Source of the DNA: an uncultured Prevotellaceae bacterium
GTDB lineage: Bacteria; Bacteroidota; Bacteroidia; Bacteroidales; Bacteroidaceae
DNA: 64,000 bases
Reading direction: 5' to 3'
NCBI GenBank assembly: GCA_947165505.1
Contig: CAMVAT010000017.1
Span: 7,253 to 71,252 of the forward strand
Positions within the stretch are counted from its first letter, which is position 1; every line of letters starts with the position of its first letter. Shown in pieces: positions 4,953 to 64,000 of this stretch. The position numbers and the translations under genes are program-made. Below the pieces are notes generated by a model. That model saw nothing but the letters and a program-made list of their open reading frames with translations. It ran no database searches and was not told the DNA's origin.

Positions 4953-5628
4953 TGTTGTCTGTTTTATAGGTTCATTGTTGATGAATGTGTTGATGAAATG
5001 TTTACTTGACCACCATTTTTTTGCCTTTGATGATATATAGGCATATGAAGAAAGGTATGATTCTTTTCATGAAATGGGGTGTAAAGGTTTTCGTGTGCAA
5101 AGATATGAAATCTGTCTTAAGCTGGCAAACGAATTTCCAAAATTATGCACGCGCGCACATGATATCGGCCGAAGGCAGACATCTTTCCCCCACGCAACCC
5201 TCCCATGGGAGGGCTTCCAACCCCTCTCTAAATCTCTCCCCAATCCTTGGGAAGAGACTTAACCGCTCCTACCCGTCGCTCTTTCACTAAGGTATGCTCG
5301 GCCCATCAGAGGGCCGGCATCATTGTTTTTGTTCGCATCGCTCACCGCGCTGTGACAAATGTCATATCAAGCCTAAGGCGTACCACGAATTCCCATAAAA
5401 AACCATGAATGAATCAATAATAATTGATGTAAAATTTGTGGCCATTTTTGTTAATTCATGTAGCGTCGCAGACATGCCCCTCGGCCGTGGGCCGACCAAT
5501 TCCTTGATTCCTATTTTCCGTAGAATCCATACCCCATCGGTCGAGGCCGAATATTAGCATCCGTTAGCATCCGTGATTTTGATTTGCATATTATGCTGTG
5601 AAAATTTGAAAATGTCATTTATTTTCAT

Positions 5629-11438: not shown

Positions 11439-11474
11439 AAAATCCCCTGATTTTTGTCAAAACCAGGGGATTTT
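11439..11474 (-). terminator. intrinsic terminator hairpin after the FKBP operon
   Basis: AAAATCCCCTG...CAGGGGATTTT forms an 11-bp stem flanked by U-rich sequence on both strands. Confidence 0.5.
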
Positions 11475-11532: not shown

Positions 11533-11563
11533 GACAATAGTTATTGCAATTGTACCACATATC

Positions 11564-11638
11564 TCCTACCACCTGCCCCTTGCCCCCTGCCCCAAAACTA
11601 TCCTCCTACCTCCTGCCCCTTGCCCCCTGCCCCTAAAA
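11564..11638 (-). repeat. two tandem ~35-nt copies (40-nt period) of the G-tract module (sense strand GGGGCAGGGGGCAAGGGGCAGG), abutting the FKBP stop codon
   Basis: TCCTACC(A/T)CCTGCCCCTTGCCCCCTGCCCC(A/T)AAA occurs at 11564-11597 and again at 11604-11638. The stop codon is at 11639-11641. Confidence 0.95.
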
Positions 11639-12499
11639 TTATTTTATCTCTTCCAACTCCACGGTGAAGATAAGTGCCGAATAGGGGGGTATTTTTCCTG
11701 CCGGCCGTGAGCCGTATGCCAGTTCCTGGGGGATGTATATCTCCCATTTGCTGCCTACGGGCATCAGTGTGAGTGCCTCGGTCCATCCTTTGATGACCTG
11801 CTTGGGCGTGAACTCGTTGGTCTGCGGGTTGCGCGTATATGAACTGTCGAAGACGGTTCCGTCGATGAGCTTCCCTTCGTATTTCACCACCACACGGTCG
11901 TTTTCTTTCGGCACGGGTCCGTTGCCCTTGCGCAGCACTTTGTATTGCAGCCCGCTGGGGGTCACGACGACCCCTGCTTTCTTGGCATTCTCGGCCAGAA
12001 AGCGCTCACCGGCCTTGCGGTGTGCGTTGCGTGCTTCGGTCATCACCTCTTTTGCCGTCCGGGCATTCATCACCGTGGTGTCTTTCTGCAGAGAGGCGAT
12101 GAAACCGCGGTGAAACAGGGCAGTGTCGATGGTGTCGGTAGCGGCCTTCACCTCGCCGCCGATGCCTGGTATCATGCGGCTTACGGCCATCTGCGCCACT
12201 TGCACGCCTGCGCTATAGGCATTGAGCCGCGGGTCGTTGTGCCGTGCCACAGCCTCTTCGTATCCACGGACAAATTCATCCATCTGACTCTCATCCACAT
12301 TGAAGTTTTGTTTCAGAAACTCCATGAGTCCTTGTGTGGCGCTATTGCCTGCGGCATAGCTGATGGAGTCGGCGGGAGTGGCGAGCACGACAGACTGCGA
12401 CGCCTTGGTCTTTTTCTTCTTGTTCTTATCGCCTGCTGACAGGGGATTGAAAGAAGCACCCGCCAAGATGACGAGTGCCAAAAGGATGATTTTCTTCAT
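11639..12499 (-). CDS. FKBP-type peptidyl-prolyl cis-trans isomerase (FkpA/FklB-like), secreted
   Basis: Signal peptide, an FKBP_N dimerisation helix region, and a C-terminal FKBP domain ...[19 protein letters not shown]...[26 protein letters not shown]. Confidence 0.85.
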
Positions 12500-18648: not shown

Positions 18649-20511
18649 ATGGCAGAAAAATTGGAAGTGAAAGAACTCGACCAAGTGGTAGTGCGGTTCT
18701 CCGGCGACTCCGGCGACGGCATGCAACTGGCCGGCAACATCTTCTCGACCGTGTCGGCCACCGTCGGCAACGGCATCTCCACGTTTCCCGATTACCCGGC
18801 AGACATCCGCGCCCCGCAAGGGTCGCTCACAGGTGTGAGCGGTTTCCAGGTGCACATCGGCGAAGGAAAGGTATATACCCCCGGCGACCAATGCGACGTG
18901 CTGGTGGCAATGAACGCCGCCGCGCTGAAGACACAATATAAGTATGCCAAGCCGCAGGCCACCATCATCATCGACACCGACAGCTTCGGCCCGAGCGACC
19001 TGAAGAAGGCGCAGTTCGCCTCCGACGACTACCTGGGCGAGATGGGCATCGACCCCGACCGCGTGGTGCAGTGCCCCCTGACAACGATGGTGAAAGACTG
19101 CCTGGCCGACAGCGGCATGGACAACAAGGCTGTGCTCAAGTGCCGTAATATGTTCGCCCTGGGACTGGTGTGCTGGCTGTTCGACCGCGACCTGTCGCTG
19201 GTGGCCAATTTCCTGCGCGAGAAGTTCGCCAAGAAACCTGCCATCGCAGAGAATAATATCAAGGTGGTGCAGGCCGGCTACGACTATGGCCACAACACAC
19301 ACTCGTCGGCCATCAATGTCTATCGCATCGAGACCAAGCAGAAAGAGCCCGGACGATACATGGACATCACCGGCAACAAAGCCACAGCCTACGGCTTCAT
19401 CGCCGCCGCCGAGAAAGCAGGACTGAAACTCTACTTAGGCTCCTACCCTATCACACCTGCCACCGACGTGCTGCACGAACTGTCGAAGCATAAGTCGCTC
19501 GGCGTGACCACCGTGCAGTGCGAAGACGAGATCAGCGGCTGCGCCTCGGCACTGGGAGCCTCGTTTGCCGGCGCCCTGGGCGTGACATCGACATCCGGAC
19601 CGGGCATCTGCCTGAAGTCGGAGGCTATGAACCTGGCCGTCATCATGGAACTGCCGCTCGTGGTGCTCGACGTGCAGCGCGGAGGCCCCGCCACGGGACT
19701 GCCCACCAAGTCGGAACAGACCGACCTGCTGCAAGTGCTCTTCGGCCGCAACGGCGAGAGCCCCATGCCCGTGCTGGCCGCTACCAGTCCGGCCGACTGC
19801 TTCGACGCTGCCTATCAGGCTTGCAAGATCGCCCTGGAGCACATGACGCCTGTGGTGCTGCTCACCGATGCCTACGTGGCCAACGGCTCCGGCGCCTTCA
19901 AACTGCCCGACATCACTCGTCTCGACGCCATCTGTCCTCCCTACGTGCCCGAGGAGCTCAAAGGTAAGTGGACACCCTACATGCGCGCCGACAACGGCAC
20001 CCGCTACTGGGCTGTGCCGGGACGTGAGGGCTTCACACATATCCTGGGCGGTCTGGAGAAAGACTCTGCCACAGGTGCCATCTCGACCAACCCCGAGAAC
20101 CACGACCTGATGACACGTCTGCGCCAGCAGAAGATACAGAATATCGAGGTGCCCGACCTGGAAGTGGAGGGCGATGCCGCCGACGCCGACCTGCTCATCG
20201 TGGGCTTCGGCTCTACCTACGGTCATCTGCACGCGGCGATGGACGAGTTGCGCGCACAAGGCAAAAAGGTGGCGCTGGCTCAGTTTAAGTACCTCAACCC
20301 GCTGCCCAAGAACACCCCCGAGGTGATGAAGAAATACAAGCGGGTGGTGGTGGCCGAACAAAACATGGGCCAACTTGCCGCATACCTGCGCATGAAGGTC
20401 GATGGTTTCGTTCCCTGCCAATACAACGAGGTGAAAGGACAACCCTTTGTGGTGGGCGATATCGTAGCGCACTTAGCCCCCCTCCTTTCCTCCCCCGAGG
20501 GGGAGGCATAA
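18649..20511 (+). CDS. korA: 2-oxoglutarate (2-oxoacid):ferredoxin oxidoreductase subunit alpha
   Basis: The N-terminus VVRFSGDSGDGMQLAGNIFSTVSATVGNGISTFPDYPADIRAPQGSLTGVSGFQVHIG (gamma-like domain) is fused to the alpha domain (GSYPITPATDVLHEL). The last ~12 codons are encoded by a repeat hairpin. Confidence 0.85.
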   Translation: MAEKLEVKELDQVVVRFSGDSGDGMQLAGNIFSTVSATVGNGISTFPDYPADIRAPQGSLTGVSGFQVHIGEGKVYTPGDQCDVLVAMNAAALKTQYKYAKPQATIIIDTDSFGPSDLKKAQFASDDYLGEMGIDPDRVVQCPLTTMVKDCLADSGMDNKAVLKCRNMFALGLVCWLFDRDLSLVANFLREKFAKKPAIAENNIKVVQAGYDYGHNTHSSAINVYRIETKQKEPGRYMDITGNKATAYGFIAAAEKAGLKLYLGSYPITPATDVLHELSKHKSLGVTTVQCEDEISGCASALGASFAGALGVTSTSGPGICLKSEAMNLAVIMELPLVVLDVQRGGPATGLPTKSEQTDLLQVLFGRNGESPMPVLAATSPADCFDAAYQACKIALEHMTPVVLLTDAYVANGSGAFKLPDITRLDAICPPYVPEELKGKWTPYMRADNGTRYWAVPGREGFTHILGGLEKDSATGAISTNPENHDLMTRLRQQKIQNIEVPDLEVEGDAADADLLIVGFGSTYGHLHAAMDELRAQGKKVALAQFKYLNPLPKNTPEVMKKYKRVVVAEQNMGQLAAYLRMKVDGFVPCQYNEVKGQPFVVGDIVAHLAPLLSSPEGEA

Positions 20512-20972
20512 TTACCTCTGCAAATGAGCTATGATTACCAAACAGCAGACCCTATGTTATACAGTCTGTTGAAGGATTTAGCCAAAAAGAATCGTGAGCA
20601 TCCCACTCCTGCCGAGTCAGCTCTTTGGAAATTCCTGAAAAACAATGCCCTGGGATGCACCTTTAAGAGACAACATATCGTAGGTGCTTATATCGCTGAT
20701 TTTATCTGCATCCAGGCAAGGTTAATCATTGAGATAGATGGTGGATACCATCAACTGCCCGAACAGCAAATCAGTGATTTGGAGCGTCAACAATGGCTGG
20801 AGTCTCAAGGTTTCAAGGTAATCAGATTCACCAATGAAGAGGTAATGGCAGACATTGAGCGAGTAATAGATACAATAGAACGTTTTACATAGCCAACAAA
20901 GAATACATGGAATCAAATATCAACAACAACAGTAATTATTCCTCCCCCTCGGGGGAGGCCAGGTGGGGGGCT
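20475..20972. mobile_element. candidate mini-cassette: a DUF559 gene bounded by ~37-bp inverted repeats
   Basis: The left arm at 20475-20511, reverse-complemented, is TTATGCCTCCCCCTCGGGGGAGGAAAGGAGGGGGGCT. The right arm at 20936-20972 is TTATTCCTCCCCCTCGGGGGAGGCCAGGTGGGGGGCT. The enclosed gene is AT-richer by hand count: about 40% G+C in its first 60 nt versus about 57% in the last 60 nt of korA. Confidence 0.4.
20524..20892 (+). CDS. DUF559 (Vsr/PD-(D/E)xK-fold) endonuclease-domain protein
   Basis: PTPAESALWKFLKN...FKRQHIVGAYIADFICIQARLIIEIDGGYH...QWLESQGFKVIRFTNEEV is the typical DUF559 pattern (D...E.DG..H, then R.. and V.RF.N). Confidence 0.8.
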   Translation: MSYDYQTADPMLYSLLKDLAKKNREHPTPAESALWKFLKNNALGCTFKRQHIVGAYIADFICIQARLIIEIDGGYHQLPEQQISDLERQQWLESQGFKVIRFTNEEVMADIERVIDTIERFT

Positions 20973-22022
20973 TCTGACATCAACAACAACAGTAACTATT
21001 CCTCCCCCTCGGGGGAGGCCAGGTGGGGGGCTTCTGACTTCAAAAAAGGGCAGCCCCGTTGGTGTCCCGGTTGTGGCGACCACTTCTTCCTGGCATCACT
21101 CCATAAAGCATTGGCCGAGATAGGCGTGGCTCCCTACGACACCGCCGTCATCTCTGGCATCGGCTGTTCCAGCCGTCTGCCCCACTACATGGCTACCTAC
21201 GGCATGAACACCATCCACGGGCGCGCTGCCGCCATCGCCACAGGCGCCAAGGTGGCCAACCCCCGCCTCACCATATGGCAGGTGAGCGGCGACGGCGACG
21301 GTCTGGCTATCGGCGGCAACCACTTCATCCATGCCAACCGCCGTAATATCGACCTCAATATGATTCTGCTCAACAACCGCATCTACGGTCTGACCAAGGG
21401 ACAGTACTCACCCACCTCACCGCGCGGATTCGTGTCGAAGTCGAGCCCCTACGGCACCGTCGAAGACCCGTTCCGCCCGGCTGAACTGTGCTTCGGCGCA
21501 CGCGGACATTTCTTCGCCCGTGCCGTAGCCACCGACACCGCCGGCACGGTAGAGGTGCTCAAGGCCGCCTACGAGCACAAGGGCGCCTCGGTGTGCGAGA
21601 TACTGCAAAACTGCGTCATCTTCAACAATGGCACGCACGACTTGGTCTATACCAAGGAGGGACGTAAGAAAAACGCCATCTACGTGCGCCACGGCGAGAA
21701 ACTCGTGTTCGGCGAGAACAACGAATACGGCCTGGTGCAGGACGGCTTCGGCGTGAAGGTAGTGAAGATAGGCGAAAACGGCGTCACCCTCGACGATATC
21801 CTGGTGCATGACGCCCACTGCCAGGACAACACCTTGCAGCTGAAGCTGGCTATGATGACACCCGAAGACGGATTCCCCATCGCCCTCGGCGTCATCCGCG
21901 ACGTGGAGGCTCCCACCTACGACGCTGCCGTGCACGAGCAGATTGCAGAGGTGAGCGCACAGAAGAAATACCACAACTTCACCGAACTGCTCGAGACCAA
22001 CGACATCTGGGAGGTGAAATAG
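20907..22022 (+). CDS. korB: 2-oxoglutarate:ferredoxin oxidoreductase subunit beta (TPP-binding)
   Basis: RWCPGCGDHFFL, GIGCSSRLPHY and GDGDGLAIGGNHFIHANRRN (TPP-binding GDG...N). The only in-frame ATG is at 20907, so about 45 N-terminal residues come from cassette and repeat sequence. Confidence 0.85.
   Translation: MESNINNNSNYSSPSGEARWGASDINNNSNYSSPSGEARWGASDFKKGQPRWCPGCGDHFFLASLHKALAEIGVAPYDTAVISGIGCSSRLPHYMATYGMNTIHGRAAAIATGAKVANPRLTIWQVSGDGDGLAIGGNHFIHANRRNIDLNMILLNNRIYGLTKGQYSPTSPRGFVSKSSPYGTVEDPFRPAELCFGARGHFFARAVATDTAGTVEVLKAAYEHKGASVCEILQNCVIFNNGTHDLVYTKEGRKKNAIYVRHGEKLVFGENNEYGLVQDGFGVKVVKIGENGVTLDDILVHDAHCQDNTLQLKLAMMTPEDGFPIALGVIRDVEAPTYDAAVHEQIAEVSAQKKYHNFTELLETNDIWEVK
20919..21038 (+). 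repeat. 60-bp tandem duplication (2 units, 1 mismatch) inside the 5' end of korB
   Basis: ATCAACAACAACAGTAA(T/C)TATTCCTCCCCCTCGGGGGAGGCCAGGTGGGGGGCTTCTGAC occurs at 20919-20978 and again at 20979-21038. It is translated as INNNSNYSSPSGEARWGASD twice. Confidence 0.95.
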
Positions 22023-33184: not shown

Positions 33185-33216
33185 AAGTAGGGACAGGGCA
33201 CGCCCTGTCCCTACTT
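33185..33216. repeat. palindrome AAGTAGGGACAGGGCACGCCCTGTCCCTACTT (REP-like hairpin)
   Basis: Near-perfect 32-nt palindrome. Related copies lie at 34231-34256, 57716-57741 and 57773-57798, with half copies at 41596-41613 and 58353-58366. Confidence 0.95.
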
Positions 33217-33916: not shown

Positions 33917-34361
33917 CACAATGCACAATGCACAATGCTTCCGTTCGGGTGGAACCAGCGGTCGGCGGCCGAAGGGAAAGCCAATTGCAATCCACCCGCA
34001 GAGAGCAGATGGATTTGCAATCCATCCACTATTATTCTTTCCCCACCCAACCCTCCCATGGGAGGGCTTCCAACCTATCCCTAAACCCCTTCCCAATCCC
34101 TAAGAAGGGACTTAACCGCTCCTACCCGTCGCTCGTTCACTAAGGTACTGCTCCCTTTTTCTGCCGGTCGCAGTATTGTTTTAGGCAACAGAGTTGCGAT
34201 TATTTGTGTTCGCTCCGCTCACCGTGCTGCGGACAGGGCACGCCCTGTCCCTACTTGCGTGGAGAGCATATCTCCTGCCCCCTGCCCCTCGCCCCAAAGC
34301 TATTTTTCACTGTCGCTCAACAACTCGTCTCTTACCTCTTACCTCTTACCTCTTACCTCTA
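33917..34361 (-). repeat. largest composite repeat element; it fills the TPM-lemA spacer
   Basis: Module order in the sense (minus) direction: TACCTCT heptads, unique arm, G-tract, palindrome, the ~190-nt element also present at 5184-5352, GGATTTGCAATCC, the GGTGGAACC...TCCACC hairpin (also at 41649-41697), and CACAATG x3. Confidence 0.9.
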
Positions 34362-41516: not shown

Positions 41517-41921
41517 AAGAGGTGAGAGGATAGTTGAGGGGCAGGGGATTTCTGAGGGGCGGGGAGCAAGGTGCAAGGGGCAGGAGATTACTTTGCCGCC
41601 CTGTCCCTACTTCCAAGCACTAAACCCTCAACCCTACCCCTCCGTTCAGGTGGAACCAGCGGTCGGCGGCCGAAGGGAAAGCCAATTGCAATCCACCTGA
41701 GTAGAAGAAAAAGCATTTGCAATGCTGCTCTCGGATTTCAAATCCTGTATTCCATGCGTCAGGATTACAAATCCCGACGAACGGGGACTTTGAACATTGA
41801 ACATTGAACTTTATGATTACCTCTCTATCCCCCATTTATCGTGATAGGCGTACTATCTGCTCCCCTCCCTACAAGGGAGGGGCTGGGGGGTGGGTCTGAT
41901 TGCAACTAAACCCTCAACCAA
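41517..41921 (+). repeat. composite repeat element filling the leader of the fructan regulator
   Basis: Module order: AAGAGGTGAGAGGA, G-tract 41537-41588, half palindrome, CACTAAACCCTCAACCC, the GGTGGAACC...TCCACC hairpin, three GGATTNNNAATCC-type palindromes, TTGAACA x2.5, the CCCCTCCC-TACAA-GGGAGGGG hairpin, and CTAAACCCTCAACCAA abutting the ATG. Confidence 0.9.
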
Positions 41922-44429
41922 ATGAAATATCTGCGACTATTTCTATACTTCACTGCCATGACACTATTGACGGCTGCGTGCGCCGACAACGACACACGCT
42001 ACCGCATCGGCGTGTCGCAATGCTCGGAAGACATCTGGCGCAACTGGCAAAACGCGGAAATGAAGATGGAGGCCAACTTCCACGACGGCATTGAACTCAT
42101 CTTCGCCTCGGCGCAAGACAACAGCGAGCGACAGACACAACAGATCGACAGTCTGGTGGCGGCCGGCATCGACCTGCTCATCGTGGCGCCCAACCAACTG
42201 CAAAACGTGTCGCCTGCCATCGACCGCGCCTACGACAAGGGAATACCCGTCATCGTGTTCGAACGAAAGACCGACTCGCAAAAATACACCGCCTTCATGA
42301 GCGCCGACAACTATGAGATGGGACGGCAGATGGGACAGTACATCGCCACGCGCATGGGGGGCAAGGGACGTGTCATGGAGATTCTCGGACTGAAAGGCTC
42401 TTCGCCCGCCGACGAGCGCCACAAGGGTTTCCGAGAGGTCATCGACAATTACCCGCAAATAGAGGTGACAGCCGAACTGCAAGGCGACTGGACCGAAGAG
42501 ACGGCCTATGGGCAGGTGCTGCAATACAAGGGCGACCTGTCACAGATTGATATGGTGTTCGGACACAACGACCGAACGGCCATCGGTGCACGACGCGCCT
42601 TCATCGAGCGCGGCGAAGACAGCACACTCACCCTCTTCTGCGGCATCGACGGACTCGCCGGGGCCAACGGGGGCATTCAGCAGGTGCGCGACTCGCTGCT
42701 CGAGGCCAGCTATATCTACCCCACACGAGGCGACCTGCTGCTCAAACTGGCGCTCGATATCCTCGACGGTAAGCCATACGAGAAAGAGACGCTGCTCAAG
42801 TCGGCCATCGTCACACACGACAACGCGCAGGTGCTGCTGCTCGAAAGCGACGAGGTGATGCGACAGGCGAAAAACCTTGAACAGATGCACCAACAGGCCG
42901 ACAACTATCTCAAAGAACTGGCCAACCAACGCACGCTGACACTGCTCGCCATCGGTTTCATCATCCTGCTATGCCTGCTGCTCGCGGCTATCTACCTCTA
43001 CTTCAGGCAGAAAGCACGCATCGCTGCCGAACGGACGAAAATGGAGCGCGAACAGCTCGACTTCTACACCCAGGTGAGCCACCAACTGCGCACGCCGCTG
43101 ACACTCATCGAGGGACCGCTCGACCAACTGGCACTGACCGACGACATCCGGCAGGCCGACAAGCAGGCAGCAGACCTCTTCGCCATCGTCAGACGAAACA
43201 CCCGACAGTTGGCACAGCTCATCAACCGCATGCTCGACGCGCAAGCAGGAGGCAGCATCGACGACGACAGTGCCGCACAACACGTACAGACCACGACCAT
43301 AACGACAGAGACGACAGACAATCACCTACACGCTGATACGGCCGTTCACGACGACATTCCTGCCGACGACGACCGCCACACGCTGCTCATCGTGGACGAC
43401 AATGCCGACATACGCGCCTACCTGCGGCATATACTCAAAGACAAATACCACATCTGCGAGGCCGCCGACGGACAGGAAGGACTGCGAGTGGCCAACGAAC
43501 AAGTGCCCGACCTGATTGTGTCTGACGTGATGATGCCCGTGATGAACGGACTGGAATTCTGCCAACACATCAAGAAAGACATGATCACCAGCCATATACC
43601 CGTGATCCTGCTCACCGCGCGCGCCCTGAGCCAACACCAGATTGAGGGATATGAGAGCGGGGCCGACGCCTATCTGACCAAGCCCTTCTCGGCCGAACTG
43701 CTCACCGCCCGCATCGACAACCTGCTGCAAAGCCGCCAACGCCTCAAAGTGCTGTGGGGCGACACCGAGGAGCTTTCTGAGGGGATTTCCGAGGGGCAGG
43801 GGCTTTCCGAGGGGCAAGGGGCAGGGGGCAAGGGGCTTTCTGAGGAGCAGGGAGCAGGGGGCAGGGGGCAGGAGAATACTATCCCCATCACGAAAGCTAA
43901 TGTCCAAACTCCTACACTCCCAAACTCCCAAACTCCCAACTCCCTAAACGACCAAACAACCACCTCCCCAAACTCCCAAACTCCCAAACTCCCAAACTCC
44001 CAAACTCCCAACTCCCTAAACGACCAAACAACCAAACAACCAAGCGACCAACTCCCCTCCCCCCAAAACGCTTTCATCGAGCGGTTTAAAAAAGTGGTGG
44101 AGCAGCATCTCGACAACAGCGACCTAAGCGTGGAAGACCTGAGCGCTGAGATGCACCTGAGCCGCGTGCAACTATACCGCAAGGTGAAGGCACTCACGGG
44201 TTACAGTCCCATCGACCTGCTGCGCAAGGCACGTCTGGCTCGCGCACACGCCCTGCTCAAGGCTGACAATGAGCTCTCCGTGAGCGAGATAGCCTACCAG
44301 ACGGGATTCTCATCGCCCTCGTACTTCACCAAATGCTTCAAAGAAGAATACGGCATCGTGCCGGGAGAGGCAAGAAAGACCTCCCCCTCAGAAAAAATAC
44401 AAAATCCTTGCAAATGTGATTTTTTTTGA
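41922..44429 (+). CDS. hybrid two-component-like regulator: periplasmic sugar-binding (PBP1) sensor, TM, HisKA, receiver, AraC HTH; no HATPase_c domain
   Basis: PBP1/LacI-type periplasmic domain (IGVSQCSEDIWRNWQNAEM...LIVAPNQ...GIPVIVFER). TM helix LTLLAIGFIILLCLLLAAIYLYF. H-box FYTQVSHQLRTPLTLIEGPL. REC domain LLIVDDNADIRAYL...DLIVSDVMMPVMNG...ILLTA. HTH_AraC SVSEIAYQTGFSSPSYFTKCFKEEYG. This is the architecture of the fructose-sensing BT1754 type minus the ATPase domain. Confidence 0.8.
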   Translation: MKYLRLFLYFTAMTLLTAACADNDTRYRIGVSQCSEDIWRNWQNAEMKMEANFHDGIELIFASAQDNSERQTQQIDSLVAAGIDLLIVAPNQLQNVSPAIDRAYDKGIPVIVFERKTDSQKYTAFMSADNYEMGRQMGQYIATRMGGKGRVMEILGLKGSSPADERHKGFREVIDNYPQIEVTAELQGDWTEETAYGQVLQYKGDLSQIDMVFGHNDRTAIGARRAFIERGEDSTLTLFCGIDGLAGANGGIQQVRDSLLEASYIYPTRGDLLLKLALDILDGKPYEKETLLKSAIVTHDNAQVLLLESDEVMRQAKNLEQMHQQADNYLKELANQRTLTLLAIGFIILLCLLLAAIYLYFRQKARIAAERTKMEREQLDFYTQVSHQLRTPLTLIEGPLDQLALTDDIRQADKQAADLFAIVRRNTRQLAQLINRMLDAQAGGSIDDDSAAQHVQTTTITTETTDNHLHADTAVHDDIPADDDRHTLLIVDDNADIRAYLRHILKDKYHICEAADGQEGLRVANEQVPDLIVSDVMMPVMNGLEFCQHIKKDMITSHIPVILLTARALSQHQIEGYESGADAYLTKPFSAELLTARIDNLLQSRQRLKVLWGDTEELSEGISEGQGLSEGQGAGGKGLSEEQGAGGRGQENTIPITKANVQTPTLPNSQTPNSLNDQTTTSPNSQTPKLPNSQTPNSLNDQTTKQPSDQLPSPQNAFIERFKKVVEQHLDNSDLSVEDLSAEMHLSRVQLYRKVKALTGYSPIDLLRKARLARAHALLKADNELSVSEIAYQTGFSSPSYFTKCFKEEYGIVPGEARKTSPSEKIQNPCKCDFF
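43766..44066 (+). repeat. about 300-nt composite repeat translated in frame in the REC-HTH linker
   Basis: G-tract (GAGGGGCAGGGGC...GGGGCAGGGGGCAGGAGAAT) followed by CCCAAACT octamers and two copies of CCCAACTCCCTAAACGACCAAACAACC. This is the same module order and polarity as the intergenic elements. Confidence 0.9.
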
Positions 44430-51621: not shown

Positions 51622-53304
51622 ATGAGAAAGACAATCATGCTTTTGACCCTCGTGCTGATGGCTGTGACCACCAAGGCGCAGACTCCGCAGATCCTGGGCG
51701 ACAACCATGCGATGCTGCCACTCAAGGTCAGCGGCAAGTATCTGCTGCTGCCCGTGCAGGAGAAAGAGGAGATAGCCAACGTGCGCGTGGTAGTGAACAA
51801 TGAGCAACGCCAGGCGCTCAACGTGAAACTGGCTGTTGACAAAGTCGATTACTTCGTGCCGCTCGACATCCGACGCTTCGGCTCCGACCACGTGCTGCTC
51901 GACATCACCCTGCATGGCGACCGACGCGCCACCGGACCGGTGAAGGACTTCGCCTGCTGGAAGGAGATGCGACAGAGCGACACCTTCGACACCGCCAACC
52001 GCGAGCGCTTCCGCCCCGTATATCACCACTCGCCGCAGTACGGGTGGATGAACGACCCCAACGGTATGTTCTATAAGGATGGTGTCTATCACCTCTACTA
52101 CCAGTGGAACCCCTACGGATCGCAGTGGGAAAACATGACATGGGGGCACTCTACATCGACCGACCTCATTCACTGGCAGGCTCAGCCCACTGCCATCGAG
52201 ATAGACGCCCTGGGCTCTATCTTCAGCGGTTCGTGCGTGGTGGATAAGAAAAACGACCGTGTGGTGGCATTCTACACCTCGGCAGGACAGCACCAGACGC
52301 AGTCGATGGCTGTGTCGCGCGACAACGGACGCACCTTCGAGAAATATGCCGCCAACCCCATCCTCACCTCCAACGAACCCGACTTCCGCGACCCGAAGGC
52401 ATTCTGGAACCCCGACATCCAGCGCTGGAACCTGATACTGGCCGTGGGACAGGAGATGCGTATCTACTCATCGACCGACCTGAAGGAATGGACCTACGAG
52501 AGCAGTTTCGGCAAGGGCTTCGGATGCCATGACGGCGTATGGGAATGCCCCGACCTGATCAAGATGCAGGTGCGCGGCACCAACCAACAGAAGTGGATGC
52601 TTATCTGCAACATCAACCCCGGTGGCCCCTTCGGCGGCTCGGCTACACAGTATTTCATCGGCGACTTCGACGGACACCGTTTCACCTGCCAGCAGACCGA
52701 CACACGGTGGATGGACTATGGCAAGGACCACTATGCCACCGTCACCTTCGACAATGCTCCCGACGGGCGCCATATCGCACTGGCATGGATGTCTAACTGG
52801 CAGTATGCCAACCAGGTGCCCACCAAGCAATACCGCTCGTCCAACAGCATACCACGCGACCTGGGGCTCTTCGCCTATAACGGCGACGTGTATTGCAGCG
52901 TGACACCCTCGAAAGAGATGCTGGCAGCTCGTGGCAAGAAGGTGAAGAACCCGACGGAGACCTGCGAGATCATCGTCGATGTGAAGGCCAACACCGAGAT
53001 TACACTCTCTAACGCCAAGGGCGAACAGGTGGTGATGCGCTACGACGCACAGCAACAGACCTTCGCCATGGACCGCACCAAGAGCGGCGACTGCTCGTTC
53101 AGCGAGGCTTTCCCCGTCACAACCACGGCTCCCACCTACGGCAACATCAAGCAACTGCGCCTGTTCATCGACCGCTGCTCGATCGAGGCCTTCGATGCCG
53201 ACGGCAAGATGGCGATGACCAACCTGGTGTTCCCCTCAGAGCCCTACAACAAAATCACGGTGAAGGGCGGCAAAGCCACCATCTACACGTTGAACGTTGA
53301 ATAG
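51622..53304 (+). CDS. glycoside hydrolase family 32 (exo-beta-fructosidase / levanase-inulinase type)
   Basis: YHHSPQYGWMNDPNGMFY (nucleophile Asp), FRDPKAFW (RDP) and VWECPDL (acid/base Glu). Signal peptide ...TTKA-QT. Confidence 0.9.
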   Translation: MRKTIMLLTLVLMAVTTKAQTPQILGDNHAMLPLKVSGKYLLLPVQEKEEIANVRVVVNNEQRQALNVKLAVDKVDYFVPLDIRRFGSDHVLLDITLHGDRRATGPVKDFACWKEMRQSDTFDTANRERFRPVYHHSPQYGWMNDPNGMFYKDGVYHLYYQWNPYGSQWENMTWGHSTSTDLIHWQAQPTAIEIDALGSIFSGSCVVDKKNDRVVAFYTSAGQHQTQSMAVSRDNGRTFEKYAANPILTSNEPDFRDPKAFWNPDIQRWNLILAVGQEMRIYSSTDLKEWTYESSFGKGFGCHDGVWECPDLIKMQVRGTNQQKWMLICNINPGGPFGGSATQYFIGDFDGHRFTCQQTDTRWMDYGKDHYATVTFDNAPDGRHIALAWMSNWQYANQVPTKQYRSSNSIPRDLGLFAYNGDVYCSVTPSKEMLAARGKKVKNPTETCEIIVDVKANTEITLSNAKGEQVVMRYDAQQQTFAMDRTKSGDCSFSEAFPVTTTAPTYGNIKQLRLFIDRCSIEAFDADGKMAMTNLVFPSEPYNKITVKGGKATIYTLNVE

Positions 53305-53527
53305 GGGCAGGGAGCAGGGGGCAGGAGATATGCTCCGAGCACCCCGCAATAAACCAGGAATAACCCCGGAAATTCCGGAGAAACCGGAATTCCGGAAAAT
53401 CCGCCGCCCCCCCGAAAGCCCCCTCAACCCTAAACCCTAAACCCTCAACCCTAAACCCTCAACCCTCAACCCTAAACCCTCAACCCTCAACCCTCAACCC
53501 TAAACCCTAAACCCTCAACCCTCAACC
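53304..53527 (+). repeat. composite repeat filling the GH32-MFS spacer, ending in 15 tandem CCCT(C/A)AA heptads
   Basis: G-tract starting at the G of the TAG stop codon, then ATGCTCCGAGCACCCCGCAATAAAC, CCGGAAATTCCGG and CCGGAATTCCGG palindromes, then the heptad array at 53421-53525. The ATG is at 53533. Confidence 0.95.
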
Positions 53528-55654: not shown

Positions 55655-55776
55655 GCGGACCATCGCTTTCCTTATACCACGTTTCCCACCACTTTTCGTC
55701 TGCAAAAGTGGTGGGAAACGTTTTTATTCGTCTGAAAAAGTGGCGAAAATTCTAATTATTCGTCTGCAAAAGTGCC

Positions 55777-57440: not shown

Positions 57441-57595
57441 TTCTCTTTGCTTTTTTTGAGTTAGTAATACAATTTGTCTCTCTCTGTCTTATTCAGACGG
57501 TGCAAAGATAACGTCAAATGATGCTCCGCTCCAAATCTTTTCCCTCACGCTGTATGAAATGCCCCCTTTTTTGTACGAAATGGAGGGCTTCTTTG

Positions 57596-57905
57596 TTGAG
57601 GGTTGAGGGTTGAAGGTTGAGGGTTGAGGGTTGAGGGTTGAAGGTTGAGGGTTGAGGGTTTAGTGTTGAGGGTTCTAGCAGGGTTTTTGTTGAGGGTTGA
57701 GTGTTGAGTGTTTGGAAGTAGGGACAGGGCGTGCCCTGTCCGCAAGAAGCCGGCATTTGATATTCTCACTACGGACAGGGCACGCCCTGTCCCTACTTGC
57801 GCGGAAAAGTAATCTCCTGCCCCTTGCCCCCGGCCCCTCAGAAAAACCCCTGCCCCTAAGCTATCTACTCCCCTCCCTACAAGGGAGGGGCGGGGGTGGG
57901 TCTGC
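57596..57905 (-). repeat. composite repeat filling the ybeY-lipoprotein spacer
   Basis: Module order in the sense (minus) direction: CCCCTCCC hairpin (it holds the ybeY stop codon), G-tract 57811-57856, two palindrome copies 57773-57798 and 57716-57741, CTTCCAAACACTCAACACTCAAC, then 11 heptads (plus strand TTGAGGG/TTGAAGG/TTTAGTG) at 57596-57672. Confidence 0.95.
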
Positions 57906-58314
57906 TCACCATCTCCAGCGCCTTGTTTTCGGCGGCCTCCATCTGTTCGCGCTCTCCGGGTCCTTTGTCATTGATGCCGCAGAGGTGCAGGATGCCGTGT
58001 ATGATGACGCGGTGCAGTTCGGTATCGTAGTCTGTATGCTGCTCCTCTGCGTTAGATCGCACGGTGTCGAGCGAGATGACGATATCGCCGTTGATGGTGT
58101 CGCCCTCGTCGTAGTCGAAGGTAATGATGTCGGTATAGTAATCGTGGCCCAGGTATTGGCGGTTTACCTCGAGTATCTTCTCGTCATCTACGAAGAGGTA
58201 TCCCACCTCGCCTATTTTCTTGCCGTACGAGGCGGCCACCTGTTTGATCCAGGCCGTTGTGTCGCGTCGCCGTATTTTCGGCATCGGCACGTTTTCGTGA
58301 TTGTATGTTATCAT
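57877..58314 (-). CDS. ybeY: rRNA maturation endoribonuclease YbeY
   Basis: HRVIIHGILHLCGINDKGPGE is the H..H.....H zinc motif. The last ~9 codons (SRPTPAPPL) are encoded by a repeat hairpin. Confidence 0.85.
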   Translation of the reverse strand: MITYNHENVPMPKIRRRDTTAWIKQVAASYGKKIGEVGYLFVDDEKILEVNRQYLGHDYYTDIITFDYDEGDTINGDIVISLDTVRSNAEEQHTDYDTELHRVIIHGILHLCGINDKGPGEREQMEAAENKALEMVSRPTPAPPL

Positions 58315-58352: not shown

Positions 58353-58477
58353 TGGAAGTAGGGACGAACTCGTTCGTTGGGATTTGCAATCCCGACGCAT
58401 GGAATATCAGGATTTATAATCCGAGAGTAGCATTGCAAATCTCTCACCTCTCACCTCTCACCTCTTACCTCTTACCT
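58353..58477 (-). repeat. composite repeat filling the coaD-ybeY spacer
   Basis: CACCTCT/TACCTCT heptads at 58441-58477 abut the coaD stop codon. Then GCATTGCAAAT, GGATTTATAATCC, GGGATTTGCAATCCC and a half palindrome. Confidence 0.95.
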
Positions 58478-58915
58478 CTATATAGGCAGAAACTCACTGA
58501 CATCCCGTCCGAAATGCTCCAGTTCGCGCACCATCGTCGAACTGACGCAGGCCAATGCGGGATCGGCAGGCAGCAGCAGGGTGTCGATGCCGCTGATACG
58601 TCGGTTGATATCGGCCTGTTCGCGCTCATATTCGTAGTCTTTGACGCTGCGCACGCCCTTGACGATGACGCCGGCCCCTTCGCGCCGTGCGAAATCGACC
58701 GTCAGGTCACTGTAGGCCTTCACCTCCAGTCGCGGTTCATCGGCATATCGTTGCCTGATGGCGTTGATGCGCTCCTCGGTCGTCTGCCGGTATGTCTTCC
58801 TCTCGTTGACCCCCACGCCCACAATCACCTGGTCGAAGAGTGCCAGTGTGCGCCGTACGATATCGTCATGACCGATAGTAAAGGGGTCGAAACTGCCAGT
58901 AATCAATGCTTTCAT
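58478..58915 (-). CDS. coaD: pantetheine-phosphate adenylyltransferase
   Basis: MKALITGSFDPFTIGHDDIV (the T/HxGH motif) and ...ISSTMVRE. Confidence 0.9.
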   Translation of the reverse strand: MKALITGSFDPFTIGHDDIVRRTLALFDQVIVGVGVNERKTYRQTTEERINAIRQRYADEPRLEVKAYSDLTVDFARREGAGVIVKGVRSVKDYEYEREQADINRRISGIDTLLLPADPALACVSSTMVRELEHFGRDVSEFLPI

Positions 58916-58934: not shown

Positions 58935-59069
58935 TTATTGAGTGTTTAGGGCCGGGCTTTCTGGGCTTTCCGAGTTTATTGCGGGGTGCTCGGAGCATAT
59001 CTCCTGCCCCCTGCCCCCTGCCTCCTGCTCCCTGTCCCTTGCCCCAAAATATCCTCTTACCTCTCACCT
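58935..59069 (-). repeat. composite repeat filling the ruvB-coaD spacer
   Basis: Module order in the sense direction: GAGGT heptads at 59053-59069 abutting the ruvB stop, G-tract 58999-59045, ATGCTCCGAGCACCCCGCAATAAAC (the same 25-mer as at 53330-53354), and CCTAAACACTCAA. Confidence 0.95.
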
Positions 59070-60098
59070 CTAAAACAGCGTCGGCTCCATGATATTGCCT
59101 TGATAGGGGTTGCGCCCCAGGTGTTGGTAGGCCAGAGGTGTGACCATACGTCCGCGTGGTGTGCGTTTGATGAATCCCTCCATGATGAGGAAGGGCTCAT
59201 ACACCTCCTCCACCGTGCCTGCATCTTCGCCGATGGCGGTGGCGATGGTAGAGATGCCCACGGGGCCGCCTCGGAACTTATCGATGATCGTGAGCAGTAT
59301 CTTATGGTCGATGTCGTCGAGCCCGTACTGGTCGATGTTGAGCGCCTGCAGCGACAGCCGTGCGATGCTCATGTCTATGCGGCCGTCGCCGCGCACCTGT
59401 GCGAAGTCGCGCACGCGCCTGAGCAGCGCATTGGCGATACGTGGCGTGCCGCGGCTGCGCCGTGCTATCTCGTGTGCCGCCTCTTCGTCGATGGGCACGC
59501 CCAGTATGCCTGCCGAGCGCCGTATGATGTGCATCAGCGTGTCGGGGTCGTAGTACTCCAGGTGCAGGTTGATGCCGAAGCGGGCGCGCAGGGGTGCCGT
59601 GAGCAGTCCGCTGCGTGTGGTAGCGCCCACGAGGGTGAAGGGGTTCAGGTCTATCTGTATCGACCGTGCCGACGGTCCTTTGTCGATCATGATGTCGATG
59701 CGATAGTCTTCCATGGCGCTGTAGAGGTATTCCTCGACCACGGGCGACAGTCGGTGTATCTCATCGATGAAGAGCACGTCGCGCGGCTCGAGCGAGGTGA
59801 GGATGCCAGCCAGGTCGCCGGGCTTGTCGAGCACCGGTCCCGAGGTGAGTTTGAACCCCACGCCCAGTTCGTTGGCGATGATATTGCTCAGGGTAGTCTT
59901 GCCCAGTCCGGGGGGGCCGTGCAGCAGGGTGTGGTCGAGCGGTTCGCCGCGGTATTTGGCGGCCTCTACAAACACCTCCAGGTTTTCCACCACCTTCTGT
60001 TGTCCGCTGAAGTCGCCGAAGCTCAGGGGTCGCAGCGCGTTCTCGAAATCCTTTTCGCCGCGTGCCCCTTCGTGTCTGATGTCGAAGTTGTCGTTCAT
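59070..60098 (-). CDS. ruvB: Holliday junction branch-migration helicase RuvB
   Basis: [13 protein letters not shown] (Walker A), [10 protein letters not shown] (Walker B) and [19 protein letters not shown] chose the start [11 protein letters not shown] at 60098. Confidence 0.9.
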
Positions 60099-60233: not shown

Positions 60234-60307
60234 GGACTTGTAGCTCAGTTGGTTAGAGCAACAGACTCATAATCTGGAGGTCCCAGGTTCAAGCCCTGGC
60301 TGGTCCA
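60234..60307 (+). tRNA. tRNA with a CAU anticodon (elongator tRNA-Met, or tRNA-Ile2 if lysidine-modified)
   Basis: GGACTTG-TA-GCTCAGTTGGTTAGAGC-A-ACAGA-CTCATAA-TCTGG-AGGTC-CCAGG-TTCAAGC-CCTGG-CTGGTCC-A folds as a cloverleaf with one U-U and one G-U in the acceptor stem. The initiator features are absent: no three G-C pairs in the anticodon stem. No encoded CCA. Confidence 0.85.
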
Positions 60308-60318
60308 CTTTGGAAATC

Positions 60319-60352
60319 AAGCACTTACGAGTTTCTCGCAAGTGCTTTTTCT
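60319..60352 (+). terminator. intrinsic terminator after the tRNA
   Basis: AAGCACTTACGA-GTTTC-TCGCAAGTGCTT followed by TTTTC. Confidence 0.6.
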
Positions 60353-60403
60353 TTTACTGGTGACCTTCAAGTGACCTTTTTGAAACAAAAGTGACCTCGC
60401 GTT

Positions 60404-60430
60404 ACCCTCTGAAACGTAGAGGGTTTTTTT
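60404..60430 (+). terminator. second hairpin plus T7
   Basis: ACCCTCT-GAAACGT-AGAGGGT followed by TTTTTT. It is preceded by three GTGACCT direct repeats at 60360, 60371 and 60391. Confidence 0.45.
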
Positions 60431-60736
60431 GTGAGTTCAAGAAATGTTTTCGCAAAGATTACAGCGAAAACAAGGAGCATTATCTCAAAGCGGCAAGCAG
60501 GAAAAGTAAACCAGACACCAGATTTAGGTATGTGGTTTGGAGTTGCCCCAGCTAATCACCAAGAAATCCATATTTGGTGGATATATGAACAGCAAAAACA
60601 CATAAAAAAGCATAAAATAGGGGCACACAACCACGATTATTTAAAAGAGAGTGGCAGAAATTGAAAGTATTTCACTACCTTTGCAGGGTAAACATTGCAT
60701 TAAATATAATATCTGGAAGATATTAACCGAATAAAG

Positions 60737-60946
60737 ATGGTTCTGTTCGAGAAGAAGAAAACTGCTAGATGGCTGGCAGGTGAAATGGGCGTCACCCCAT
60801 CTACCGTCAGCAAGTGGTGCACCAACTCTTCTCAGCCTGACCTCGCCACGATACTCAAAATTGCAGATTTGTTAGAGGTCGATATACGGGAGTTGTTTGT
60901 GAGGGAGTATAAGCAATATTTGGTTTCACAGGAACTGGAAAAATAA
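60737..60946 (+). CDS. XRE-family helix-turn-helix protein (69 aa)
   Basis: TARWLAGEMGVTPSTVSKWCTNSSQPDLATILKIADLLEVDIRELF is an HTH_3/Cro-C1 pattern. A TACCTTTG -7 box lies at 60676-60683. Confidence 0.75.
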   Translation: MVLFEKKKTARWLAGEMGVTPSTVSKWCTNSSQPDLATILKIADLLEVDIRELFVREYKQYLVSQELEK

Positions 60947-61093
60947 GAGTATAATTGTATTATGGGCAAGAGTCTAAATTTGCACGCTTTCCCTGAAGAA
61001 GTTATTCTACGTAAGAATACCATAACAACGGAAGCTCCACAACCAGATAGCATCCAGATTAAAGCAGCATCAGAACCAGCCAAATAACGCATT

Positions 61094-61681
61094 ATGAGTG
61101 ATATTCTGACAAACGCACAAAGACATACCTATATGGCGGCTATCCACGGCAAAGACACGAAACCAGAGATGGTGGTGCGTCGCTGGCTGTGGGGGCATGG
61201 GTATCGCTATCGGCTGAATCATAAGCGGTTGCCGGGGAAACCTGACATCGTGATGCGGAAGTACAGGACGTGCTTCTTTGTGAACGGGTGCTTCTGGCAC
61301 GGCCATTTGGTGAAGTTTTCACCAAATGATAGTTCAGAGTTTAGTGTTGAGCGTTTAGAGTCAGTTGAAAGTGGAGAGGTGAAAGGTTCCGAGTGCTGCA
61401 AGATTCCGAAGACGAATCGGGAGTTTTGGGTGGCAAAGATAAGGAGGAATCAGGAACGTGATGCGAGAGTGCAGCATGAGCTGGCTGAGATGGGCTGGCA
61501 CTCTATCACGATTTGGGAATGTGAACTGAAGCCGAAGGTCAGGGAAAAGACATTGGAATCGCTGGCATACACGCTCAACAGGATTTTCCTGCAAGATAGG
61601 ACTATCAAGCGTTATGAGATTCCAAAGGAAGAACCCATGATGGCGGCAGAGGACACACCTGAATACAACAATAACAGATAG
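61094..61681 (+). CDS. vsr: very-short-patch repair endonuclease (Vsr) carrying a 29-aa internal insertion
   Basis: RSKNM-equivalent N-terminus (NAQRHTYMAAIHGKDTKPE), LPGKPDIV, FVNGCFWHGH, then an insert at 61307-61393, then CKIPKTNREFWVAKIRRNQERD and GWHSITIWECEL. Confidence 0.8.
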   Translation: MSDILTNAQRHTYMAAIHGKDTKPEMVVRRWLWGHGYRYRLNHKRLPGKPDIVMRKYRTCFFVNGCFWHGHLVKFSPNDSSEFSVERLESVESGEVKGSECCKIPKTNREFWVAKIRRNQERDARVQHELAEMGWHSITIWECELKPKVREKTLESLAYTLNRIFLQDRTIKRYEIPKEEPMMAAEDTPEYNNNR

Positions 61682-61700
61682 AATAGGAACGTTATAAGAT

Positions 61701-62861: not shown

Positions 62862-62908
62862 AGTTAGACATTGGGGGGGAACTGCAAAGACACAATGCCA
62901 TTTGAAGG

Positions 62909-62947
62909 AAAACCGAATCACATTGGCGATTCACCAATGTGACTCGG
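62909..62947 (-). terminator. terminator for the convergent minus-strand pair
   Basis: CCGAATCACATTGG-7 nt-CCAATGTGACTCGG (13 of 14 bp paired), followed on the minus strand by TTTT. Confidence 0.55.
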
Positions 62948-63005
62948 AAAGGGAGTGTCAAAAATAACATCTCCTTGATTCCACAGTGAAAATTCGACCA
63001 TCACA

Positions 63006-63305: not shown

Positions 63306-63313
63306 TAATTGAC

Positions 63314-63994: not shown

Positions 63995-64000
63995 GAAATC

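Follow-up and report, generated by a model that had tools for sequence, protein, structure and literature searches.

GGGGCAG heptamer repeats in Prevotella spacers: G-rich past stop codons as part of a polar intergenic mosaic

Why does a G-tract module that recurs seven times in one stretch of Prevotellaceae DNA carry its G-runs on the sense strand in every copy? The earlier note on this DNA, which drew attention to the module, connected its orientation with a possible RNA G-quadruplex (rG4). The answer depends on what kind of repeat the module is, on how far the strand rule extends beyond the window (the whole stretch of DNA that was analysed, 64,000 nt in length), and on whether the rule is peculiar to G-tracts or shared by the sequences around them.

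The window has a GC content of about 55% and a Bacteroidota gene content, as judged by Pfam and a codon-model gene map. It contains two SusC/SusD loci, one of which is a fructan PUL with the order HTCS (41922-44429), SusC, SusD, SGBP, GH32 (51622-53304), MFS, and PfkB; the other genes include ybeY, coaD, ruvB, Lrp, LemA, three FKBP genes, and a TPM-domain gene. The RuvB protein is at most 90% identical to that of any species representative, and its best matches are all from Prevotella or Prevotellaceae. Pfam content and these RuvB matches rule out a cyanobacterial origin, which the heptamer repeats had first suggested. Exact-protein look-ups retrieved contigs 97.6-98% identical to the window from several metagenomes; they belong to other strains of the window species. 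A related Prevotellaceae MAG, CAMJFC01, bears these repeats too. Two further Prevotella species, reached via GuaA, are largely devoid of the module, although one of them carries one (GGGGCAA)n array, located between divergent genes.

The 7-nt unit of the module forms a degenerate tandem (GGGGCAG)n with the 3' end GGAGAT. Heptamer variants within the cores are GGGGCAA, GGGAGCA, and GGGGCGA, and the terminal element is nearly always GGCAGGAGAT. With up to three mismatches allowed, the module 19-mer GGGGCAGGGGGCAGGAGAT has nine matches in the window, against 0.01 expected from dinucleotide shuffles. Tandem Repeats Finder detected period 7 at five sites (among them 11572-11593, 34274-34288, 43810-43872, and 59003-59045), with the consensus CCTGCCC / AGGGGCA, as well as a 40-nt super-unit repeated twice at 11563-11642, in agreement with the two units described earlier at 11564-11638. 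All seven copies listed in the earlier note were recovered where it had placed them, and a G4Hunter scan found no additional (GGGGCAG)n copies in the window. No curated RNA family of Rfam 15 matches the modules at the gathering threshold, the sole match being a tRNA-Met at 60234-60307. The copies are:

11564-11638, minus strand: G-tract module of two 40-nt super-units, GGGGCAGGGGGCAAGGGGCAGG(A/T)GGTAGGAGGAT, in the FKBP-to-Lrp spacer, 5 nt past the FKBP stop codon (11639-11641); a VNTR
34271-34295, minus strand: G-tract module GGGGCGAGGGGCAGGGGGCAGGAGA in the TPM-to-LemA spacer, 68 nt past the TPM stop codon, after (GTAAGAG)n and before a REP hairpin
41537-41588, plus strand: G-tract module with a ATTTCTGA insert in the spacer between a BACON-domain gene and the HTCS gene, followed by half a REP (41597-41612) and a CTAAACCCTCAACCC array
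43775-43875, plus strand: G-tract module in frame in the HTCS gene (41922-44429), in the linker from the receiver domain (aa 489-598) to the AraC HTH (aa 740-819)
53304-53329, plus strand: G-tract module sharing its first G with the TAG stop codon of GH32, between cistrons of the fructan PUL (GH32-MFS-PfkB)
57811-57856, minus strand: G-tract module 20 nt past the ybeY stop codon, followed by two REP hairpins and CCCTCAA arrays
58999-59045, minus strand: G-tract module of six heptamers in the ruvB-to-coaD spacer, 24 nt past the ruvB stop codon and preceded by a (GAGAGGT)n array at 59053-59071

According to the Pfam and codon-model gene map, six of the seven copies are intergenic, and one, which had already been recognized as lying inside a coding sequence, falls within the HTCS gene. 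The six intergenic copies begin 0, 5, 20, 24, 68, and 155 nt past the preceding stop codon and end 84-390 nt before the next start codon. As had been described, the TAG codon of GH32 supplies the first G of the module at 53304. The module ending at 11638 was also said to lie beside a stop codon: its interval does abut the FKBP stop codon (11639-11641), but its first G-run begins 5 nt after it. A CTCCCCTCCC/GGGAGGGG hairpin precedes the module at 57811-57856 and overlaps with the 3' end of ybeY.

Presence of the module in RNA is suggested by its position, either in an operon or upstream of a terminator-like hairpin. In the fructan PUL, a hairpin of this kind occurs only after PfkB (55679-55721). 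At the FKBP locus, the following element lies between the module and Lrp and is kept in all strains compared:

11439-11474, minus strand: hairpin AAAATCCCCTG-N14-CAGGGGATTTT, then GTTGC

This hairpin, which a simple terminator scan missed because of its 14-nt loop, is likely a terminator, and would place the FKBP-locus module in the FKBP 3' UTR.

In the window, the G-rich strand is the sense strand in all seven copies, six between co-directional genes and one in the HTCS gene. The claim that the G-runs lie on the coding strand of both neighbouring genes is true of all six intergenic copies, each of which separates co-directional genes. The G-rich strand is plus for three copies and minus for four, switching with gene direction within 64 kb; the bias therefore tracks transcription and not replication, and a replication-strand bias was ruled out. 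Hitch-hiking on coding-strand composition was ruled out as well, as the sense strands here contain more C than G, opposite to the module.

Chance or shared ancestry could produce such a pattern, given few copies, a post hoc test, and the common descent of strain copies. The chance figure of 1/128 quoted in the earlier note is right if the test is one-sided, but it becomes 1/64 if two-sided and was calculated after the pattern had been seen; moreover, comparisons of the same locus among strains are not independent events. Loci of the lineage outside the window (L numbers denote the related loci fetched) are oriented as follows:

L334, 2832-2902 (equivalent to L335, 2887-2970), between two minus-strand genes: module G-rich on the sense strand
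L319, 17 nt past a stop codon: module G-rich on the sense strand
L003, between a convergent pair: module G-rich on the sense strand of the left gene, with the right trailer made of the G/T-rich complement of the C/A arrays
L328 and L339, in divergent or unresolved spacers: C-rich strand toward the nearer start codon

With L334/L335 and L319 added to the six of the window, the intergenic co-directional loci of the lineage are G-rich on the sense strand in 8 of 8 cases, the sample outside the window being small (two new independent intergenic loci, a metagenome scan having yielded four contigs of the lineage). The same orientation is found at all four co-directional Nostoc loci with the GGGGCAG heptamer (L002, L009, L012, and L015); among nine cyanobacterial loci with this heptamer, seven have it on the coding strand just past a stop codon and two before a start codon on the non-coding strand. 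Pooled over the two phyla, co-directional loci agree in 12 of 12 cases, and in 6 of 6 when the hypothesis-generating window loci are left out (one-sided p = 0.016). Since these new independent loci are uniform, other array types show the complementary polarity, and related repeats follow the rule across the genomes of three organisms (PMC4692102), chance and shared ancestry are regarded as a highly improbable explanation.

Tandem arrays with units of 7-8 nt abound in the spacers of this genome, along with two kinds of hairpin, and comparisons of strains and loci show that the order of these blocks is constant in the mRNA sense. A stop codon is followed by purine-rich arrays (GAGAGGT/GTAAGAG), GATAGTTTT, the G-tract ending in GGAGAT, and an optional ATGCTCCGAGCACCCCGCAATAAAC; next come one or two GTAG-headed palindromes, GTAGGGACAGGGCRYGCCCTGTCCCTAC, then G-free C/A-rich arrays, and finally a start codon. 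The units of the G-free arrays are CCCTCAA/CCCTAAA, CTCAACA, CCAAACTC, CTAAACTCC, and CTATACTCC. The following blocks represent the mosaic in the window:

34329-34360, minus strand: (GTAAGAG)x4.6 purine-rich array adjoining the TPM stop codon, a stop-proximal block
58441-58479 and 59053-59071, minus strand: arrays similar to (GTAAGAG)x4.6
53330-53360, plus strand: block ATGCTCCGAGCACCCCGCAATAAAC, joined to a G-tract and pairing with its last tracts as a hairpin; second copy at 58968-58998, minus strand
33187-33214, no strand assigned: GTAG-headed REP-like palindrome GTAGGGACAGGGCACGCCCTGTCCCTAC; more at 34229-34256, 57716-57743, and 57769-57798, and a half copy at 41597-41612
53421-53527, plus strand: (CCCTCAA/CCCTAAA)x15 array, G-free on the sense strand and directly upstream of the start codon of MFS, the start-proximal end of the mosaic; strain L220 has another copy number
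57595-57712, minus strand: (CCCTCAA/CTCAACA)n arrays whose sense strand is rich in C and lacks G; they correspond to the 53421-53527 array in reverse complement

The same polarity is reflected by the composition of the spacers as a whole. Of 22 co-directional spacers, 18 have a higher GC skew in their 5' half than in their 3' half. Of the 13 stop-proximal arrays, 10 are G-rich, and of the 11 start-proximal arrays, 8 are C-rich (Fisher p = 0.012; Spearman -0.58, p = 0.003, n = 24), where the 24 arrays include four (L006, 1877-2334) inside an uncalled NTP-transferase coding sequence and the p-values, computed with these four included, are approximate. Leaders (positions -40 to -1) contain 40% A and 15% G, and more C than G, even in those without repeats (p = 0.013). 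As the polarity is common to other repeat blocks, the orientation of the G-tract is one instance of a general trailer/leader polarity. Avoidance of Rho loading as the reason for the G-sense orientation was set aside: G-free C-rich arrays of 100 nt lie on the sense strand in the same spacers. At one locus only, TAnnTTTG, the Bacteroidetes -7 promoter motif, is present at the GATAGTTTTG junction.

On balance, the favoured explanation is a slippage-prone heptamer repeat that belongs to a polar, exchangeable intergenic mosaic and whose orientation is filtered at the RNA level. Selection for what can be tolerated in untranslated mRNA would then produce the intergenic strand bias. In Shine-Dalgarno-independent Bacteroidota genes such as these, leaders would have to stay G-poor and unstructured, so that G-free arrays face the start codon, and G-rich arrays would be tolerated, perhaps as mildly useful 3' structures, only beside the preceding stop codon. 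Longer G-tract alleles would probably fold into two- to four-layer RNA quadruplexes, quadruplex formation itself presumably not being what is conserved.

The exchangeable nature of the mosaic is evident from strains 97.6-98% identical to the window, which differ in unit number and sequence at every locus compared. The FKBP-Lrp spacer is a VNTR with one, two, or three super-units in eight strains, with or without a 5' GAGAGGT array, and its alleles have from 2 to 9 G3+ tracts among strains that are 98% identical. Across strains about 98% identical, the block composition of the ruvB-coaD spacer takes three forms. In the ybeY trailer, the module is present in two strains and replaced by unrelated sequence in a third, and the YbeY protein ends at 140, 145, or 150 aa across strains. 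The CCCTCAA and CCGGAAAAT arrays differ in length between strains, and the GH32 locus has an A/G polymorphism within a G-tract.

Copies inside genes show what the repeats do where the surrounding sequence is translated. In the linker of the HTCS protein, the in-frame G-tract is read as ...SEGQGAGGKGLSEEQGAGGRGQEN..., and a later array as NSQTPKLPNSQTP...:

43904-44051, plus strand: translated array of the CCAAACTC octamer, located after the in-gene G-tract, with the block order of the intergenic mosaics

The NTP-transferase of the window species is 403 aa long, compared with 239-245 aa in relatives, and the whole mosaic occurs in it twice in frame, with the G-rich strand as sense and the REP hairpin translated as VGTGRALS. 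In GuaA of close relatives, the module is in frame at two hot spots with the C-rich strand as sense (SPAPCPLPPAP), an insert that is missing from solved GMP synthases and from many Prevotella GuaA proteins. In the M16 peptidase gene of a close relative, it is likewise in frame with the C-rich strand as sense. Altogether, in-gene events in this species and close relatives comprise three with the G-rich and three with the C-rich strand as sense. Hence the statement that the module is always G-rich on the sense strand, accurate for the seven copies of the window, does not extend to guaA (two sites) and the M16 peptidase gene of close relatives: the strand rule holds between co-directional genes and fails inside genes. 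Because (GGGGCAG)n is free of stop codons in all frames of both strands, its insertion is tolerated in genes; the CCCTCAA array is seen only in the sense orientation, as its antisense strand contains TGA. In-frame insertions in both orientations separate spread at the DNA level from filtering at the RNA level. Taken together, the comparisons between strains and genes demonstrate growth and shrinkage of arrays by slippage, exchange of blocks between loci, and in-frame landing in flexible protein parts. The repeats also have practical consequences: they break metagenome assemblies (contigs often terminate within them), inflate protein lengths (536-645 aa for GuaA), and seed spurious ORF calls.

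Orientation could instead be fixed at birth relative to transcription, with the mosaic or the G-tract being mobile or enzyme-generated. Candidate processes are the action of a REP-associated single-strand transposase on the displaced non-template strand and transcription-driven slip-out expansion of G-rich non-template DNA. Such directional insertion or generation is consistent with the copying of a mosaic of about 260 nt (G-tract, REP, and C/A arrays) as a unit with the same internal order, twice in the NTP-transferase gene and in HTCS, and with the gap of 12-14 nt between G-tract and GTAG-headed REP hairpin at both 34271 and 57811. Among the matches listed, the REP sequence recurs unchanged across many phyla and often has arrays of 7-9 nt beside it, suggesting shared machinery. 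The recurrence of the same polarity in three phyla (PMC4692102) could likewise reflect a mechanism (directional generation or function) and not passive filtering. However, no cognate RAYT (Y1 transposase) gene is present in the window or in the related loci fetched. The solo G-tracts of guaA and of the M16 peptidase gene run antisense to transcription, which implies that insertion is not strictly oriented, and orientation in the window is independent of the replication strand (three plus, four minus in 64 kb). Furthermore, one strain has an empty LemA trailer, and the window's array at this place apparently grew from a pre-existing local seed, AAACTCAAC; neither terminal inverted repeats nor a target-site duplication are found at this filled-versus-empty site downstream of LemA, and a MITE was ruled out on the same grounds. 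Overall, directional insertion appears unlikely. Somewhat more doubtful still is an active mobile "trailer-leader cassette" composed of a G-tract/rG4, a GTAG-REP hairpin, and an unstructured G-free leader; a REP-associated single-strand DNA enzyme on the transcription bubble would move the cassette or generate its arrays. If true, such a cassette would provide 3'-end protection for the upstream gene and a Shine-Dalgarno-independent leader for the downstream one, and would even be copied in frame into proteins.

A functional rG4 past the stop codon would account for the orientation in another way, acting as a 3' exonuclease barrier or as an attenuator or terminator, or else modulating ribosome release or re-initiation in the cistrons on either side. 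The earlier note had proposed a G4Hunter scan; it yields means of 1.6-2.2, with every copy at or above 1.5, and the minimum-free-energy structures predicted by ViennaRNA with G4 energies include a quadruplex for six of the seven contexts, with four layers at 41537, 43775, and 57811 and two elsewhere. Ordinary Watson-Crick folding of the sense RNA is unremarkable against shuffles for most copies (z of -0.3, -0.7, -0.1, and +0.7), which also favours an rG4. So do the 12 of 12 co-directional loci of two phyla with the G-rich strand as sense, and the location of 4 of 6 loci 0-24 nt past a stop codon, as in the published, transcribed, G4-forming heptamers (PMC4692102).

The number and spacing of the tracts point the other way. 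It had been stated that the runs are 1-5 nt apart and satisfy the G3+N1-7 rule; among the module sequences this is true of 43811-43835 alone, so that the strict motif (G3+ N1-7)x4 occurs in one of seven copies. The modules of the window have 3, 3, 3+3, 5, 5, 5, and 10 G3+ tracts: only three are available at 34271, at 53304, and in each unit of 11564-11638, and three other copies need loops of 8-11 nt. All copies qualify under relaxed definitions (G2 tracts, or a G4Hunter score of at least 1.5). Neither the window modules nor the FKBP-locus alleles show a preference for four units (four tracts), unlike the heptamers of Xanthomonas and Nostoc. Canonical G4 motifs are strongest in the window at (TTGAGGG)n and (TTTAGGG)n, which are on the template strand and thus absent from the mRNA. 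In the two copies joined to the ATGCTCC...CACCCCGC block, the last tracts pair with the block in a hairpin instead (z of -1.8 and -2.5). A conserved Watson-Crick hairpin as a general feature of the module was ruled out, as a fold better than that of shuffles is confined to these two copies, which are joined to the ATGCTCCGAGCACCCCGC block.

Natural variation weighs against an rG4 as well: there are FKBP-locus alleles with two or three tracts, the A/G polymorphism of the GH32 locus falls within a tract, and the module is missing from orthologous spacers of some strains. Tract numbers of 2 to 9 among strains at a single locus mean that quadruplex capacity is not conserved. Both orientations are equally frequent in coding regions, and the bias is part of the wider intergenic polarity, G-rich past stop codons and G-free before start codons. 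An rG4 is therefore plausible for long alleles, as far as folding predictions go, and is not a conserved property. The potential suggested in the earlier note is borne out by the G4Hunter and ViennaRNA predictions and by in vitro precedent (PMC4692102), but the quadruplex is not singled out as the cause of the bias, and a function of it as the explanation is considered rather improbable. For assays of rG4, the natural alleles with 2 to 9 tracts in near-identical strains constitute ready-made controls. Filtering at the RNA level of a slippage-prone repeat in a polar mosaic accordingly stays the preferred reading of the strand rule.

The module shares features with several known repeat systems. 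Rickettsia palindromic elements (RPEs) are palindromic elements of 100-150 nt that are translated as extra peptide segments in tolerant regions. They were reportedly described by Ogata et al. in 2000 as short selfish repeats in frame in protein-coding genes. Similarly, the blocks of the module insert in frame and are translated in tolerant protein regions; unlike RPEs, the module is a heptamer array and occurs in another phylum. We know of no strand rule past stop codons for RPEs.

Heterocystous cyanobacteria are said to contain short tandemly repeated repetitive heptamers (STRR), a finding ascribed to Mazel et al. in 1990. Exact (GGGGCAG)n arrays are present in many Nostoc genomes. The STRR units are not G-tract repeats, and the host of the module belongs to the Prevotellaceae. 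TAACTGA heptamer repeats have a patchy distribution that includes cyanobacteria and some Bacteroidetes, and their arrays are located directly upstream of start codons (MacGregor 2015, PMC4679880). Like STRR and TAACTGA, the module consists of tandem intergenic heptamers from families of differing units; unlike the module, the TAACTGA unit is not a G-tract repeat. To our knowledge, no mosaic with REP hairpins has been described for STRR or TAACTGA repeats.

The GTAG-tagged REP superfamily forms REP/BIME mosaics, and some of its members supply stop codons or lie in ORFs (Di Nocera et al. 2013, PMC3733652); GTAG REPs in Bacteroidetes are not reported in that survey. Like REP/BIME, the blocks described here form short-block mosaics in co-directional or convergent spacers, downstream of coding regions and probably transcribed, and the hairpin adjoining the G-tract, GTAGGGACAGGGCRYGCCCTGTCCCTAC, has the GTAG head and palindromic body of these elements. 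The G-tract itself differs from a REP (an imperfect palindrome of 20-40 nt with a terminal GTAG) in being a direct repeat without dyad symmetry.

The closest counterparts are the G-rich heptamers GGGAATC of Xanthomonas and GGGGA(C/T)T of Nostoc (Rehm et al. 2015, PLoS One, PMC4692102). [quoted passage not shown] They form K+-dependent quadruplexes in vitro, and their function is unknown, with no link to gene function. The module likewise consists of tandem 7-nt units, each with a run of three to five G, and is dispersed, mostly non-coding, and situated chiefly between aligned ORFs. Its copies past stop codons are on the coding strand, a position that fits all six intergenic copies, the new loci L334, L319, L003, and L339, and the Nostoc loci, and its copy number and sequence differ among close relatives. 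It departs from these repeats in its unit (GGGGCAG), its phylum (Bacteroidota), and the absence of a four-unit preference; it is also placed among REP hairpins and G-free arrays in a mosaic of fixed order, and occurs in frame in genes in both orientations, its quadruplex being a predicted one. Through Prevotella of the gut or rumen, the stop-codon/coding-strand rule, unexplained in Xanthomonas and Nostoc, extends to a third phylum, and GGGGCAG in Nostoc loci adds a second test; by now the rule appears to be a general one that merits mechanistic study. For this purpose, the fixed block order linking G-tracts, REP hairpins, and G-free leaders in Prevotella is a useful handle. Judged by unit structure and placement, the module falls into an already known bacterial class, the G-rich heptamer repeats, to which GGGGCAG in Prevotella is a new addition.

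Within the window's Prevotella clade, heptamer arrays enter coding sequence. GuaA contains two hypervariable insertion hot spots, both in frame (alignment A1, proteins P0001-P0120), and the inserts are translated heptamer arrays, with CCCTCAA read as PSTLNPQ and CCTGCCC as SPAPCPLPPAP; the proteins are between 536 and 645 aa long. In an NTP-transferase the entire spacer mosaic is present twice and in frame, comprising the G-tract, the REP hairpin (translated as VGTGRALS) and CTCCCAAA arrays, and the protein reaches 403 aa, versus 239-245 aa in related species. The genes are located as follows:

L006 3664-5445: guaA of the Prevotella clade (alignment A1, P0001-P0120)
L334 7702-8913 and L335 7768-8904 (equivalent lineage loci): NTP-transferase gene

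The mRNA strand of the trailer blocks carries many Shine-Dalgarno-like strings, AGGAGG or AGGAGA. To our knowledge, Shine-Dalgarno sequences are not used for initiation in the host phylum.

Window 11598-11620, 34271-34280 and 58999-59010, together with the purine arrays: Shine-Dalgarno-like trailer strings

Metagenome contigs of the window's species often terminate within these repeat mosaics (L336-L338, L318, L319 and L328), so that short-read assemblies are broken at the repeats.

Other repeats are dispersed through the window. One, of the form CTCCCCTCCC-loop-GGGAGGGGC(N)GGGGGTGGGTCTGC, is common to other Prevotellaceae; it overlaps the final ybeY codons in the window, its G-rich arm satisfies the strict G4 motif, and in locus L222 it forms a long hairpin together with a G-tract. 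Another, 110 nt long, contains GGATTGCAAATCC-type hairpins and bears no relation to the heptamer arrays.

Window 41869-41904 and 57857-57908, also L088, L093 and L222: CTCCCCTCCC-loop-GGGAGGGGC(N)GGGGGTGGGTCTGC repeat
Window 5185-5294 and 34038-34147: 110-nt dispersed repeat, 88% identity

A DUF559 gene, flanked by inverted CCTCCCCC/GGGGGAGG hairpins, separates the alpha gene of a 2-oxoacid:ferredoxin oxidoreductase from its beta gene. The position holds a PDDEXK_3 gene in strain L347 and no gene in other strains; the pattern suggests that small nuclease genes have a hot spot here.

Window 20524-20892, within region 20475-21043: DUF559 gene (Vsr-like endonuclease fold)
Window 20919-21043: 60-nt tandem duplication inside the beta gene

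An island of 44-45% GC (window 60300-64000) adjoins tRNA-Met and carries Vsr and Fic genes; in L220, a strain of the window's species, a restriction-modification cluster replaces it at the same position. The hybrid two-component regulator (window 41922-44429) has HisKA at aa 379-439 and a receiver domain from aa 489, just 50 aa apart. No HATPase_c match was found in this protein, which seems to lack the kinase catalytic domain.

The mosaic's REP-like element is a GTAG-headed palindrome of 28 nt, GTAGGGACAGGGC(A/G)(C/T)GCCCTGTCCCTAC.

Window 33187-33214, 34229-34256, 57716-57743 and 57769-57798: GTAG-headed palindrome
Window 41597-41612: half copy

Bacteroidetes are not among the GTAG REP carriers reported in the 2013 survey (Di Nocera et al. 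2013, PMC3733652). Among the matches listed (L223-L315), the identical palindrome occurs in Bacteroidota, Chloroflexota, Spirochaetota, Bacillota, Rhodothermota and others, in genomes of 29-74% GC, and its neighbours are often tandem arrays of 7-9 nt or arrays of half-sites.
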